From NCBI RefSeq assembly GCF_006345805.1, contig NW_021836156.1, forward strand, positions 27,367-91,366: DNA of 64,000 nt. The letters run 5' to 3'. Below, piece after piece: positions 18,789 through 62,949 of this stretch. This DNA is from Octopus sinensis (Eukaryota). Below the pieces are notes generated by a model, which saw only the letters and a list, made by a program, of their open reading frames with translations, searched no databases and had not been told where the DNA came from. Within the stretch, counting starts at the first letter, position 1. Each line of letters begins with the position of its first letter. A program made the position numbers and the translations under genes.

Positions 18789-18990
18789 GGTATACAGCTG
18801 CCGATCGAATGCTAGAACATTATAGAAATACTCCAATGTTTGTTGACAAATTTTCCCGCTTTTTAAGGGTAATTTACCCAATACATTTACTGTTCTAACA
18901 GCGTTTCTTCGTTTGAAAATAAATCATCATCTTATTTGTATCTTAAAATGCTCATTTCAATGCTTATGAAAAACATACATTAGCTTGTTT

Positions 18991-19548
18991 ATATCTCGAC
19001 TGCTGCTTTCGGCTGTTTACTGTCGGTGTCAGTATGTGTGTATACAATTATATGCATTGACTGCAGCATCAGAGAGCTTTAGCTCTTATTTCTACCATCG
19101 TAGGTTTCCTAACACCCACAGTCATATTTAATGACAATTCTAGATCTCCTTTTTGATGATACATTGCTAAACCTCTGCCTACGTAAATTAATTGTATGCA
19201 TATTGGCGATTCACTAGATCATCCATAGAGTTCTATGATGTAGACATACACACTAGCGGCGATCTCGTCCGGAATCTGGCAAGTAGTACCGATTCTACTG
19301 ATGAGGCTCCGGTGTTAAAGCCGAAACTGTCCGACAGTATAGGAATATCTCGACTGCCACTTTCCGCCGTTTATGGTCGCTGTCTCTATGTATGTATATA
19401 CACAATTATGTGCGTTGACTGTAGCATCAGAGCGCTTTAACTCTTATTTCTAGCATCGTAGGTCTTCTAACGCCCCCGGCGATACTTGATGACAACTCTA
19501 GTTTTTCTTTATGGGATTACATTGCCAAACCGCTGCCTACTTCAGTTA
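18991..19548 (+). mobile_element. Tandem ~354-nt unit (about 1.6 copies) with a hammerhead at the junction; retrozyme/PLE-like
   Basis: 18991-19195 recurs diverged at 19345-19548 (atatctcgactgc...ttgactg.agcatcagag.gcttta.ctcttatttcta.catcgtagg...acattgc.aaacc.ctgcctac). Confidence 0.75.
19291..19349 (+). ncRNA. Type I hammerhead ribozyme with palindromic stem III
   Basis: gattcta CTGATGA ggct ccggtgttaa agcc GAAA ctgtc c gacag TA taggaat. Confidence 0.85.
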
Positions 19549-19605
19549 TTATATTTCTATTTCATATCTTACCTAGAATAACTATTGCTTAACCATTCTC
19601 ACACC

Positions 19606-19653
19606 GTCTCCGATGAAGGGATATATAAAATATCCCAGAAACAGCTGTAAGAC
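19606..19653 (+). ncRNA. Minimal type I hammerhead motif (CCGAUGA core variant)
   Basis: gtct CCGATGA a gggata tataaaa tatccc a GAAA cagctg TA agac. Confidence 0.7.
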
Positions 19654-19713
19654 ATTCTCTTTATAACTGTTCTGAAATCTTTCACAGCCTTGGATTTTTA
19701 TCTCATACTGTTA

Positions 19714-34320: not shown

Positions 34321-35010
34321 ATATGTGAGGATATTATTTTTTATGATAATACCAGTGGCTTAGTATGTGTAAAAACACAACGGTAAAAAATATCAATTAA
34401 TAATTAAGGGTACAAGCAAGCAGTACTGGTATGCTAAACATAGCAGTCAAATGACCAAAACGCCAATTTTCATTTAAACTTCGCCATTGGTACGGGGTGT
34501 GGTTTTTTTTATTCATTTGCCCGCTTTCACCTTTGTGTTTACGTGAAAATTTCTGTTTTGGTCATTTTCACTGCTATGTTTAGCATGCCGGTACTGCTTG
34601 TTAGTACCCTTAATTATTAATTGATATTTTTTTTTTACCGTTATGGGTTTTTTTACGCATGCTACGCCACTGATATTATTATAAACAACGATATCCTCAT
34701 ATATTTAAATAATTTTTATTCACCTCGATCACCTTTTAAAAATTTACTGCGGTATTAAAAACGGGCATCGTATAAATTGGTGAGATGAATACTCTCCATA
34801 ACCCTGGGGTTAGTAAGACTCGCTGAAGATGCACGAAGGATTTTTCTCAAAGTTGAAATCACGGTGAAATGGGTATGTCTGGCCTTTTCAATTTCCTATT
34901 ATTTCCGTCATTTGTACGGGGTTTGGGGAGTGAAAATTTGTGGTTTGGCCATTTTGACTGCTATATTTAGCATGCCGGTACTGTTTGTTTAGTAACCTTA
35001 ATTATTAATA
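34321..35010. mobile_element. Penelope-like non-autonomous element: inverted plus direct repeat with a hammerhead remnant
   Basis: 34321-34470 is the reverse complement of about 34545-34703; 34930-35009 directly repeats 34543-34621; hammerhead-like motif in between. Confidence 0.7.
34818..34874 (+). ncRNA. Degenerate type I hammerhead motif
   Basis: actcg CTGAAGA ... GAAA tcac g gtga AA tgggt; UH replaced by AA, stem II poor. Confidence 0.45.
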
Positions 35011-35023
35011 TTGCTTCGGTAGT

Positions 35024-35063
<40 letters not shown>

Positions 35064-35113
35064 GGCCCCTATGCAAGGATGACACGCAAATTCGCGAAGC
35101 GTTCCATATTTTT
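35011..35113 (+). ncRNA. U6: U6 snRNA copy (probable retrocopy) fused to a SINE/LINE tail
   Basis: ttgcttcggtagtacatatactaaaattggaacgatACAGAGAagattagcatggcccct...gatgacacgcaaattcgcgaagcgttccatattttt; followed at 35119-35173 by the family A tail. Confidence 0.93.
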
Positions 35114-51094: not shown

Positions 51095-51230
51095 AAATTA
51101 CAAATTGACTCACGTCGCCGCCCAATTTAGACTCCGCCCCTTCAGCTTTTCCACGTTTAATAATATATTACAAATCACAGTAACCGAGAGGCGTAGAAGA
51201 GAGGGAGGAAGACGAAAATGTCGGTAAAGC
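51095..51230 (+). promoter_or_regulatory. Possible Pol II promoter-like island
   Basis: Clustered TGACTCA, CCAAT and two CCGCCC motifs in non-repeat DNA, then a purine-rich stretch and aaaATGTCGgtaaag; motifs only. Confidence 0.25.
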
Positions 51231-51469
51231 CAAGATTGCGATACGGTTTCGATTCCCGTTGGAAATTAAAAAAATCATTATCTATACATTATATATGATT
51301 TAATGTCATCGAAAATGCCCGACAGTAACAGCAGCTGTTGGTGTTTTAAAGCCAAGATTGCGATACGGTTTCGATTCCCGTTGGAAATTTAAAAAATCAT
51401 TATCTATACATTATATATGATTTAATGTCATCGAAAATGCCCGACAGTAACAGCAGCTGTTGGTGTTTT
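51226..51469. repeat. Near-perfect 122-bp tandem duplication
   Basis: 51226-51347 versus 51348-51469, one visible mismatch. Confidence 0.9.
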
Positions 51470-51705
51470 AGCCATAAGTCATTCCAGATGGAACAAATTA
51501 TTATGGCTGGAGGCGGTCAAGTCGTAACCATCCAGAATTTTTTTTTATATTAGAAGTTGCAGCCTCTCTCTTGCTTTATTTTTGTTTTTTAAAAGTTCGC
51601 TTTCCAGCGAGATGGTATCGAGTTCGAACCTGCTGTGCGGCACGTTGGTCAAGTATCTTCTACTACATTGCACGAGGTGGATGGAAACTGAGTGTGTCAG
51701 TCTGT

Positions 51706-51956: not shown

Positions 51957-52194
51957 AACATTATTTACATTCGATGGATATTTGTCCTCATCTTGTTTGT
52001 TGTTAACACAACGTTTTGGCTGACATACGCTCCAGCCTTCATCAGGTGTCATGGGGAAATTTCGAACCTGGGTTCGAACCTAAGATATTTTTCGATGTTG
52101 TTGTTATTATTATCATTATTATTATTCATGTCAGTGCCTGGAATTGAACTCGTAATCTTGGGATTAGTAGCCCTCGCTCTTAACCACTACGCCA
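51957..52194 (-). mobile_element. tRNA-headed, hammerhead-containing short element, copy 1
   Basis: Minus strand: A-box tggcgtagtgg, B-box gagttcaattcc, (AAT)n, hammerhead, ...ggacaaatatcc.tc.aatgtaaa. Confidence 0.8.
52005..52050 (-). ncRNA. Minimal type I hammerhead motif with GAAA mutated to AAAA
   Basis: gacac CTGATGA a ggctg gagcgtatgt cagcc AAAA cg TT gtgtt. Confidence 0.7.
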
Positions 52195-52477
52195 TATACA
52201 CGTCAAATGTAAATAATGTAAATAATGTACATAATTCCTCATCTAATAGAATAAGTTTCAATCTTTAAAATTTACAATTGTCATCGATTCGGTTGACTAT
52301 AACCCCTCAAGGCGGTGCTGTAGCATAACCGCAATCCAATGACTGAAACACATAAAAGATTAAAGATAAAGAATAAAGAATTGTTAGGGGAAACAGAGCT
52401 GGCTGCTATTTTTAGCAAGTTTATTTCACCATGTAATAATCCCGTTGTAGGCTCAAAAAAGATATTCTTTTTGTACT

Positions 52478-53521: not shown

Positions 53522-53662
53522 TATTATTCAGGTCACTGCCTGGAATCGAACTCGGAATCTGGCGGTTAGTAGCCCGCGCTCTTAACCACTACGCTCACGG
53601 GTAGTGATTAAAAGAGCAGGCAACTAACCCCAAGATTCCGAGTTCGATTCCAGGCAGCGACC

Positions 53663-53723
<61 letters not shown>

Positions 53724-53871
53724 TAATAATAATAACATCGAAAAATACCTTAGGAATGAGAAACCAGGTTCGAAATTTCCCCAAGACACCTGAAGAAGGC
53801 TGGAGGTTATGTCAGCCGAAACGTTGTGTTAACAACAAGGAAGAGGAGGACAAATATCCGTCAAATGTAAA
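53522..53871 (+). mobile_element. tRNA-headed, hammerhead-containing short element, copy 2, with an inverted extra head
   Basis: Minus-strand head 53522-53594 abuts plus-strand head 53598-53662, then (AAT)n, hammerhead and the same 3' end as copy 1. Confidence 0.82.
53785..53830 (+). ncRNA. Minimal type I hammerhead ribozyme
   Basis: gacac CTGAAGA a ggctg gaggttatgt cagcc GAAA cg TT gtgtt; intact core, ACGU palindromic mini stem III. Confidence 0.8.
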
Positions 53872-53884
53872 CGAGTGTAAACAA

Positions 53885-55950
53885 TGTCAATAATTAAGCA
53901 TCAAGGTTGTGCTGTCAGAGCCAGGGCGCGTGTTCTAAAACACGAGGGGACGAAAGCCGTTGGATGGGCCCGAGTGGTAGAGGTACAACGTAGCAACAAA
54001 GCTACAATTCGGTCTTTGACGGGTCGGGACGGCCGTATGCTATACGAGTCCAAGCAAATGTGTACGGAATTTCAGTAGCACTTCGCCGAACTGTTTGGGG
54101 TGCGCGATGTGTCGGGGACGGAGATGAATTTCACCTCCTACCTCGGCGGTATGCCTCGCCTTTCGGCTAGGGACGCGGAGTTCTGCGAAATGCCGATAAC
54201 AGCCAAAGACATACATGACGCGATGACGAGCTGCACAAAAGAGGTCTCTGGTCCTGGATGGTCTACCCTTCGAGCCTTGTCTTCATGTGCCAAACTTGTT
54301 CGGTGATCACTTGGCGAATGTCTACCACAATTCTATTCTAGTCTAGGCACAAGGCCCGAAATTTTGGGGGAAGTGGCCAGTAGATTAGATCGATCCCAGT
54401 ACGCAACTGCTATTTAATTTATCGACCCCGAAAGGATGAAAGGCAAAATCGACCTCGACGGAATTTGAACTCAGAACGTAAAGACAGACGAAATACCGAT
54501 AAGCATTTCGCCCGGCGTGCAAACAATTCTACCAGTTCTCCGTCTTAATGTCTACTACAATTGGCAGCAGAAGGGGAGAATACCCGATACTGTGAACCGT
54601 GTTGCAATGGTGCTGCCGAGAAAGGACTTGAGCAAGGAGGACCAAATAGATAATTTTAGGCCCATAATTCTCTTAAATGTAGATTATAAGATTTTGGCCA
54701 AGGTGTGAGCCAAGGGATTGGCGCTTCTCGTCGGTAAGCTGTCGGTGACGCGCAGACTCGCACTATTCCGAACACATCTATCCACGATAACCTCCACCTC
54801 ACGCGCTACATCATAGAGAGGGAAGGGAAGGAACCTGGTATGGGTAGGGCTCTGATCAATTAGGATTAGTCAAAAGTTTTCGACGAGGTCGACTATCAAT
54901 ACTTGGAGGCTGGATCGCTGCAATGTATAACGGCATCTGTACGGTGGTCAAAATAAACGACCATCTATCGGAATCGTTTAGCACCACTCACTCGGTCCGT
55001 CAGAGATACCCACTCTCTTCGCTTTTGTACGTGCTTACTATCGAGCCATTACTGAAGAAGATGGATATTTCGAGGGGCATCCCGCGTTGTCTAGGATGCG
55101 GAAGGCACGTGTCAGCTTATGCAGATGACGTCACCGTAATAGCGTCGGATAGCTCGGAAATCTTGGAGATTGGCTCTACCTTAAGAGATTACGAAGCGGT
55201 AATTAATCAGGACAAGTCAGTGGGCCTGCAGTTCGGCACCTGGAGAGGCAGGGCCATGCTAAGCAACAGCCTGCTAGGGCGCTGGACGGAAGGACCGGTT
55301 AAATTACTTGGTATCTGGTTTGGTCCGGACCTCCAGGTGGACAAGAACTGGGGGATGTGACGAGCAGGGTAGCCAATCTCACCTAGAAATGGGTTGAGAG
55401 GAAGCTGTCCCTGAAAGGTCGGGCGAAGATGGCGAATGCATGCATCGCCTCAGTCATATACTTCCGCCTGACCGTCATCTCTTGCCCTGCTACATGGCTG
55501 ACCCAAGATGGAGCGCCTGCTCTTCAGCTTTCTGCGGAAGGGATGTGCTCCACTCGTCAGACGGTCCATCTGCTGTCAACAACCGCTGAGTGGCGGACTG
55601 GGAGTGCCGTGGCTAATGATGCGAAGACACGTGCCGAGGCTGCAGCATCACCAGGAGTTTCTTGACGGTGAGAAGGTGTGGTCATCGTTTGTCAAGCAGG
55701 GTTTTCTGCAGCTCATCTCATTGACAGGGCTACAGTCCTTGGACAAGCGTAGACCAAGAAGTGGCGCTTGGTACCAGGAGTGTCGGCAAGCGCTAACAGT
55801 CGACCGCATTGCCAGTCGAGCAATGCGGATAGTGAAAGTTCCACTATGGAGTTGTATAGGAGATTAGTGGCGGGCAAGAGCGACGACGTCCTCGGGGAAA
55901 GTCTGGGTTTCAAGAGGGATTAATTAACTGGTCTTTTTCGGAGGACTTTC
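53885..55950 (+). mobile_element. Decayed Tx1/L1-group LINE, RT region
   Basis: GPDGLP.E, NFRPIILLNVDYKILAKV, SVRQ..PLS.LLYVL.IEPL, YADDV, INQDKS, KLLGIWF, GGLG.P; stops and frameshifts. Confidence 0.88.
54333..54546 (-). mobile_element. Family C-variant SINE inserted in the Tx1 element
   Basis: TSD aatgtctaccacaatt / aatgtctactacaatt. Confidence 0.85.
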
Positions 55951-62844: not shown

Positions 62845-62865
62845 GTATTGCTTCGCTAATACATA

Positions 62866-62896
<31 letters not shown>

Positions 62897-62949
62897 GGCA
62901 CCTGCGCACGGATGACACGCAAATTCGTGAGACGTTCCATATTTTTTTT
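62845..62949 (+). ncRNA. U6: U6 snRNA copy (diverged retrocopy) fused to a LINE-type tail
   Basis: gtattgcttcgctaatacataaaaattggaacgatACAGAGAagattagcatgg...gatgacacgcaaattcgtgagacgttccatatttttttt, then ggcggtgccctagcatggccacagccccaaggctgaaac. Confidence 0.9.

Follow-up and report, generated by a model that had tools for sequence, protein, structure and literature searches.

Within a 64,000-nt stretch of the genome of Octopus sinensis (hereafter the window) lies a short repeat in which a tRNA-like head, an (AAT)n run and a minimal type I hammerhead ribozyme follow one another. This arrangement raises the question of whether the unit is a SINE that carries a ribozyme and is mobilised in trans, or part of a larger element. 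A first, sequence-only reading had proposed a separate, non-autonomous 'ribozyme SINE' lineage with its own Pol III promoter that cleaves itself, may circularise and borrows the machinery of a Penelope-like element (PLE). Here we report that the unit belongs to an autonomous element of Penelope/Poseidon type in the same genome and forms its pseudo-LTR.

Parts of the unit and its ribozyme

Two copies of the unit lie in the window (Table 1). The first contains every part that the sequence-only reading had named, i.e., the head, the (AAT)n run and the minimal type I hammerhead, and the second, inverted head reported at its 5′ end was found as well; this inverted arm covers columns 16–78 of a natural reference copy, the remainder of the arm being absent. 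Of the Pol III A/B-box head described for this copy, the B box (53640–53651) is intact, but a deletion of ~9 nt disrupts the A box. The body contains an ATG at 53756–53758, from which the frame is open for 43 codons, and stops without a tail near the first of the two RT start clusters described below. Since the host SINE is cut off on the 5′ side and an RT fragment lies on the 3′ side, the insertion site looks rearranged. The inverted second copy, previously placed at 51957–52194, is likewise present (52203–51958, minus strand) and shares 88% identity with the first over 137 nt; its own inverted arm had been overlooked, however, and its hammerhead core is broken because G12 has changed to A, a case of CpG decay. 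Together, this copy and its arm show a possible TSD of 9 bp with one mismatch. Among the further features of the window, the ~350-nt direct repeat is likely a retrozyme-type element of another family.

Table 1. Features of the window, numbered from its first nucleotide
Feature	Positions	Strand	Basis
Second copy: head (starts at −2, A box intact), AAT run and body; tail absent	51958–52203	−	sequence
Inverted partner arm of second copy, with part of PLE tail	52193–52244	+	blastn, sequence
First copy, inverted arm: tRNA-like head and a few bases of the AAT run	53522–53594	−	blastn, 93.7% over 63 nt
First copy, tRNA-like head: 5′ start of PLE pseudo-LTR	53596–53662	+	sequence; same head after ORF stop in autonomous copies
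First copy, (AAT)n run, variable in length among loci	53664–53734	+	sequence
First copy, body: 5′ end of PLE ORF	53735–53886	+	sequence, blastn
First copy, minimal type I hammerhead within coding frame	53785–53830	+	core letters, predicted fold
RT fragment (RVT_1) from a non-PLE non-LTR element, next to the unit on its 3′ side	54848–55360	+	
Direct duplication of ~120 nt, upstream of second copy	51229–51340 and 51350–51470		
Two near-full U6 snRNA copies	35008–35113 and 62845–62946	+	Rfam, 103.5 and 96.6 bits
Direct repeat of ~350 nt: type I hammerhead at 19298 whose stem III is longer, and a further hammerhead-like core near 19610	about 18984–19660	+	
Hammerhead-like core with palindromic CAUG beside a TA run, resembling Neptune ends elsewhere	56309–56270	−	

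The hammerhead is composed of the core segments CUGAAGA (53790–53796) and GAAA (53818–53821), a stem I of 5 pairs (53785–53789/53826–53830), a stem II of 6 pairs (53798–53803/53812–53817) and the palindrome AACGUU (53820–53825), with cleavage predicted after 53825, which corresponds to codon 24 of the ORF described below. The core, the unpaired A before stem II and the palindromic AACGUU are features of minimal PLE hammerheads, and the earlier assignment to this type was thus borne out. Rfam returned no hammerhead family match, and free folding of the window unit gave no significant z-score; in the free fold, a competing hairpin (53823–53836) covers the cut site and is predicted to be as stable as the ribozyme-like fold (−13.9 vs −13.5 kcal/mol). 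Minimal PLE hammerheads are described as cutting poorly on their own (PMC4209133). The sequence-only reading had presupposed a consensus with a catalytic core, and the core letters are indeed the commonest letters in ~150 copies. The only common non-CpG variant in the ribozyme, family-wide, affects the free core position N7 (U or A) and amounts to an Asp-to-Glu change in the overlapping ORF, a pattern that fits joint constraint on RNA and protein. For a 16-mer immediately downstream of the core, 9,276 exact matches were counted in the 2.72-Gb genome searched, compared with 3 for the reversed control, and the unit is therefore not a product of chance.

ARAGORN predicted 0 tRNA genes in the window, Rfam gave no tRNA match for the head, and the acceptor and T stems of the head pair poorly. 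Its tRNA likeness rests on two observations, namely A and B boxes at canonical spacing in intact copies (+8 and +52, i.e., tRNA positions 8 and 52–62), and local alignment to the genome's own tRNAs with z-scores of up to 6.5 and 7.4 for two heads when compared with shuffles. In the natural copy L062, both boxes are canonical in sequence and spacing, though the stems have decayed. Arg(TCT), Thr and Ala scored alike among the seven isotypes sampled. The unit thus possesses the A- and B-box head of a tRNA-derived SINE, without a tRNA call by ARAGORN or Rfam. A 22-mer of the head has 3,009 exact genome matches (control, 0), and at 19 of the first 20 head matches on contig 1 the body follows downstream on the same strand, three of these loci holding only the first 63–94 nt of it. 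Head and body are one unit and not segments that occur mostly independently, a finding on which the sequence-only reading had likewise depended. No independent SINE family of the head was found in 790 kb that had not been chosen for the unit: all 4 strong head matches there lay beside a body, and a single weak match (69%) belonged to another SINE. The (AAT)n run is likely the tail of a captured tRNA-derived SINE. Several truncated copies (L008, L018, L020, L021, L030) are joined via this run to AAT tails of other SINEs or LINEs.

The autonomous element that contains the unit

The partner was located by means of a degenerate pattern for a Penelope/Poseidon RT motif, which had 111 matches in the genome (control, 0), essentially all from one family. 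Parts of the unit were present at 25 of 30 RT loci, and at 14 of the 30 the head lay ~1 kb downstream on the same strand. Fourteen of 20 longer loci (13 re-fetched for looking complete, 7 new) run from the ORF end into the head; of the 7 new loci, 2 show this order, and in 3 an internal deletion precedes the junction with the body. At this junction, the ORF stop is followed by a spacer of 29 nt and then by the head. At the other end of the coding region, two loci (L274 and L279) are open from the ATG of the body through the hammerhead and tail into an N-terminal RYG...HLTFL motif that is common to database relatives. The order is ORF end, spacer, head, AAT run and ORF start with hammerhead and tail. 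With the head lying behind the ORF stop and the body forming the ORF start, the 'ribozyme SINE' represents the pseudo-LTR of an autonomous element. Pseudo-LTRs that arise from a partial tandem and overlap the 3′ UTR and the 5′ end of the next copy were seen at L221, L222 and L262, and the ORF–head junction is bridged by contigs of four other organisms. Two related elements with their 3′ UTR on the contig show a hammerhead-like core there and no tRNA-like head. The sequence-only reading had suggested a search for a PLE whose pseudo-LTR shares the hammerhead region; such an element was found, and the unit lies in that element itself.

The element has a single ORF with a PLE-type RT (RVT_1, E 1.5e-9), and the majority frame is open over 721 codons (2.4-kb ORF). 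Nearly all of its 74 relatives at E ≤ 1e-20 carry PF00078/PF28514/PF26215. The ORF and the relatives have the C-terminal motif VYSI..CSCG..YKGET..L..R.EEH in common, which we take to be of GIY-YIG type; PF01541 was unmatched in the two fragments tested. The Neptune Zn-finger linker between RT and EN (CX2-5CxxC) is absent from L180 and L190 and present in the Neptunes L143 and L147. Members of the Penelope/Poseidon clade are described as having no such linker (PMC8557442). A quick tree separated the ORF group from the Neptunes with full support; because this tree holds no named Poseidon reference, the Penelope/Poseidon label rests on the absent linker. The family looks inactive now, copies being 5–8% away from the commonest letter and no intact ORF occurring among the fetched loci.

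Neptune elements, the main yield of a genome search with the GIY-YIG Pfam family, had also been considered as partner and were rejected, as their 3′ ends and hammerheads are unrelated to the unit. A PDB sequence search with a Neptune ORF as query returned 0 matches. One young Neptune family (L118, L127, L131–L133, L142, L143) has open frames of 780 aa and ends in a hammerhead with a U3-A8 core variant and a CAUG palindrome; its copies are inserted in TA runs.

From the 16-mer counts, the match rate of this 16-mer in sampled arms (61 of 121) and ten 40-kb stretches picked blind, which contained 4 insertions, we estimate a family size of roughly 18,000 hammerhead arms. ORF-bearing copies are far fewer than short ones, many of which keep A and B boxes and could be transcribed, as would be the case for a separate Pol III lineage that is self-cleaving, maybe circular, and trans-mobilised by a PLE. 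Schistosome Sm-alpha (PMC6765202) and the non-LTR retrozymes (PMC7229834), as these sources portray them, offer precedents. However, the unit belongs to the autonomous element, and the short copies have no private variants. Variation reaches 15% of copies or more in 11 columns, and all 11 variants are common to short (53 heads) and ORF-linked copies (24 heads), in heads and bodies alike (Fisher p 0.16–1), with both classes 5–8% away from the commonest letter. The unit is thus not a non-autonomous lineage that shares only a 3′ tail with its partner, as a SINE would be. Taken together with the rarity of same-strand hammerhead pairs and the lack of ends at the cut site and of read joints back to the head (see below), these data make a separate lineage very unlikely.

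Footprints of insertion and the probable start of the RNA

A position-ordered set of 47 insertions was assembled from the first 20 head matches, from 20 regions over the first 24 body matches (two having been skipped as already included) and from the 10 blind stretches. In this set, 26 insertions were head-to-head and 21 single-stranded. Among 45 two-armed insertions pooled from all sets, 22 reached a TSD score of at least 10 (mostly 10–14 bp), compared with 0.5% of 1,980 mismatched flank pairs, and 39 carried the tail on exactly one arm (p 5e-7). An inverted 5′-truncated arm, TSDs and an optional tail of 30–40 bp at one end are listed as PLE footprints (PMC8557442). The head-to-head arms, TSDs and one-ended tail bear out the earlier claim that PLE machinery made the insertions, whereas the accompanying expectation of copies without TSDs proved wrong. 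Two-armed insertions within one TSD and a tail on one arm thereby put numbers to the open question of how PLEs integrate.

Tandem and circularly permuted copies had been anticipated along with inverted ones. While inverted copies were frequent, two same-strand hammerheads occurred in 1 of the 47 insertions, so that tandem units each with a hammerhead, as in non-LTR retrozymes, were seen just once. None of 180 body hits ended at the predicted cut site (no start at column 92, no end at column 91). The 3′ ends of the body fall into two fixed clusters ~30 nt apart in 159 of the 180 hits, the outer cluster coinciding with the end of the query, and place the RT start sites at about +125 and +155 from the ATG. 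RNA reads show the same two 3′ ends as the genome copies. In the first RNA run, 9,452 of 12.9 million reads held the unit, on both strands (unstranded), and 82–84% of the unit reads continued into unlike sequence in three runs of one study. No pile-up of starts or ends was observed in these three unstranded, non-RNase R runs, about 6% of each of which was read, and among 15 of 75 read joints listed none led from the cut site or the 3′ end back to the head. The reads fit passengers in host transcripts. With no ends at the cut site and with tandems being rare, the self-cleavage and circularisation envisaged by the sequence-only reading are unsupported; neither appears to be part of the copying route that left the observed copies. 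At five of the 30 N-terminal loci introduced below (L263, L265, L266, L269, L280), a truncated unit is joined to a segment with a common end ~115 nt past the tail. This shared end may be a third fixed template end or a jump site.

Truncation inside the unit is frequent, with 25 of 34 arms stopping before the head start. Arms that do reach the tRNA-like start stop within −5 to +4 of G1 in 35 of 38 cases, the other 3 entering the ORF, and the same stop was found for 19 of 22 arms in the position-ordered sets; overall, 5′ ends pile up sharply at −7 to +4 of G1. Exact 18-position counts were 843 for the ORF end, 1,025 for the spacer and 4,164 for the head start. A spacer match stood upstream of 8 of 100 head starts (contig-1 lists); corrected for the match rate of the spacer (28/79), about 23% of head-start copies run on upstream (95% interval, 10–45%). 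A smaller sample had given the spacer 18-mer in 2 of 22 ORF-linked copies, and the larger one was used; with the rate of 2/22 the spacer step would shrink or vanish, but the ORF-end 18-mer (843 matches, rate 10/27) keeps it. The N-terminus of the ORF had 169 matches at ≤2 mismatches, from which 30 loci were taken. Four of them are 5′-complete with an upstream head, and three of these begin there, the fourth (L262) being a true tandem. Since most arms reaching the head stop there, it is likely that the element starts its RNA at the tRNA-like head.

A part of the pile-up can have another origin, because the native sequence is palindromic over a short span around G1, and exact head-to-head junctions fall on this palindrome at 984 loci, as would result from fold-back or arm annealing and not from an RNA end. 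The main rival reading therefore regards the captured SINE head as inert, assumes a Pol II promoter as in Drosophila Penelope and ascribes the stops to the palindrome. For Penelope of D. virilis, an internal promoter with Inr/DPE but without a TATA box is indeed described in the pseudo-LTR (PMC2377424). However, numerous arms with a stop at −5 to +1 are fused straight to flank or to a body arm and not to the palindrome (for example L028, L081, L088, L107, L222, random block B8 and the second window copy), three of the four 5′-complete copies begin at the head, and the A and B boxes have kept canonical sequence and spacing while the stems decayed (L062). We thus hold a palindrome under a Pol II promoter to be a rather unlikely source of the ends. 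In a further alternative, RNase P would cut a long Pol II transcript at the tRNA-like G1, and the RNA processed in this way would serve as template. Exact starts at G1 were seen in 10 of 50 head-start arms, but 29 of the 50 carry 1–5 bases upstream of it and all 984 twin junctions keep 2; the poorly pairing acceptor and T stems and the missing Rfam tRNA match speak against such processing as well, which we consider very improbable.

The 721-codon majority frame contains no TTTT on the sense strand, and decayed copies have 0.39 per kb, compared with 9–13 per ORF in four Neptunes of the same genome and 8–12 in three related ORFs from metagenomes. Relative to the element's own codon usage this gap is borderline (synonymous shuffle, P 0.048; Markov, P 0.05–0.10), which speaks for the inert-head reading; after recoding, P was 0.04 and 0.012 with Neptune usage and 0.04 to below 0.002 with control codon usage. 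Together, the 5′ pile-up and the TTTT gap suggest that RNA polymerase III possibly reads the tRNA-like head. The Pol III promoter of the sequence-only reading would then survive as the likely RNA start of an autonomous element, but not as a SINE's own. A bolder and still doubtful version is that a coding element captured the promoter of a tRNA-SINE, cleared its whole ORF of Pol III terminators, was transcribed from end to end by Pol III and, through internal priming, shed SINE-like copies of its 5′ end in the tens of thousands. As a rule, the RNAs made by Pol III are short and lack a cap, which makes the translation of a 2.4-kb ORF difficult to account for and speaks against Pol III. An argument from the length of Pol III RNAs is also made in PMC10886601.

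We favour, with moderate confidence, a reading in which an autonomous Penelope/Poseidon-type element has the unit as its pseudo-LTR, the RNA starts from a captured tRNA-derived promoter and the short copies result from internal RT priming past the hammerhead. A short tRNA-derived SINE with an AAT tail would have inserted between the stop codon and the hammerhead, and its head would have become the internal promoter of the element, in parallel to the proposed origin of TRIMp3. The RNA would begin a few bases before G1 and run through the head, the AAT run, the ORF and, in tandems, the next pseudo-LTR. The RT would prime at internal sites in either pseudo-LTR, just past the hammerhead; priming in the downstream one would yield long, variably truncated copies, and priming in the upstream one a copy of ~300 nt that ends at the RNA 5′ end, i.e., the SINE-like unit. 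Two cDNAs at staggered nicks, one per start site, may join head to head, often on the G1 palindrome. By analogy with Anolis Poseidon, the RT would need an ORF segment beyond the tail, and short copies, which lack this segment, would likely be dead ends for the most part. The hammerhead, which would cut codon 24, would act only conditionally, off the copying path. In Anolis Poseidon, footprints of this type are attributed to internal priming at two sites, the hammerhead is dispensable and uncut RNA is the main template (PMC11167929).

Relation to known systems

The element is of a known kind, an EN+ PLE of Penelope/Poseidon type; what sets it apart is its tRNA-derived start. Our literature search retrieved neither a PLE whose pseudo-LTR is tRNA-derived nor an autonomous retrotransposon read by Pol III; the family may already be filed in Repbase, Dfam or the supplements of PMC8557442 and PMC13282606. 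In the account of PMC10886601, autonomous non-LTR retrotransposons are taken as Pol II transcripts and SINEs as Pol III transcripts. If our reading is true, a PLE with RNA from a tRNA-derived promoter would blur this divide and make one ask how translation proceeded on an RNA that has no cap and carries a ribozyme at codon 24, and with end-to-end reading by Pol III a single RNA would serve as LINE and SINE at once. SINE-like repeats could arise simply, with no SINE involved, through internal priming in the 5′ pseudo-LTR, and part of the large share of 'unclassified SINE' sequence given for octopus in PMC13282606 may be of this kind. Octopus OR2 is called a CORE SINE in PMC4758252.

Like Poseidon of Anolis carolinensis and Penelope of D. 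virilis, the element combines an RT with a C-terminal domain of presumed GIY-YIG type and has no Neptune Zn-finger linker. As in these PLEs, its pseudo-LTR overlaps the ORF start, a minimal hammerhead lies near the start codon, the 5′ arms are inverted and the tail is one-ended. The RT start sites are ~30 nt apart, at about +125/+155 here and at +111–118 and the tail in Anolis Poseidon (PMC11167929). Unlike in Poseidon and Penelope, an A/B box of tRNA origin followed by an AAT run opens the pseudo-LTR, most copies end at this point, and the ORF is devoid of TTTT. D. virilis Penelope is credited with a LINE-like internal promoter with Inr/DPE (PMC2377424).

Among other repeats, schistosome Sm-alpha and Sj-alpha likewise place a Pol III promoter, putative in the unit, before a hammerhead in a short interspersed repeat, but Sm-alpha is portrayed as non-coding, tandem and released by cleavage (PMC6765202), whereas the unit is part of a coding element, rarely occurs in tandem and has ends that avoid the cut site. 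The TRIMp3 elements Cassandra, Helenus and Ajax would resemble it in having a small-RNA-derived Pol III promoter, putative in the unit, in a terminal repeat, for which an origin by SINE insertion has been proposed; they are non-autonomous LTR elements, however, whose autonomous partners are argued to need Pol II (PMC10886601), while the tRNA-like piece of the unit sits in the autonomous element. Metazoan non-LTR retrozymes share the type I hammerhead and the link to PLE pseudo-LTRs, but are described as tandem arrays with canonical hammerheads and circular RNA (PMC7229834; bioRxiv 10.64898/2026.07.22.740005), in contrast to the monomeric or head-to-head unit with its minimal hammerhead. Finally, the tRNA-derived SINEs of octopus (Ohshima and Okada 1994), compared by description alone, have a tRNA-derived head as well; unlike these, the unit terminates in a PLE 3′ end and belongs to a coding element.
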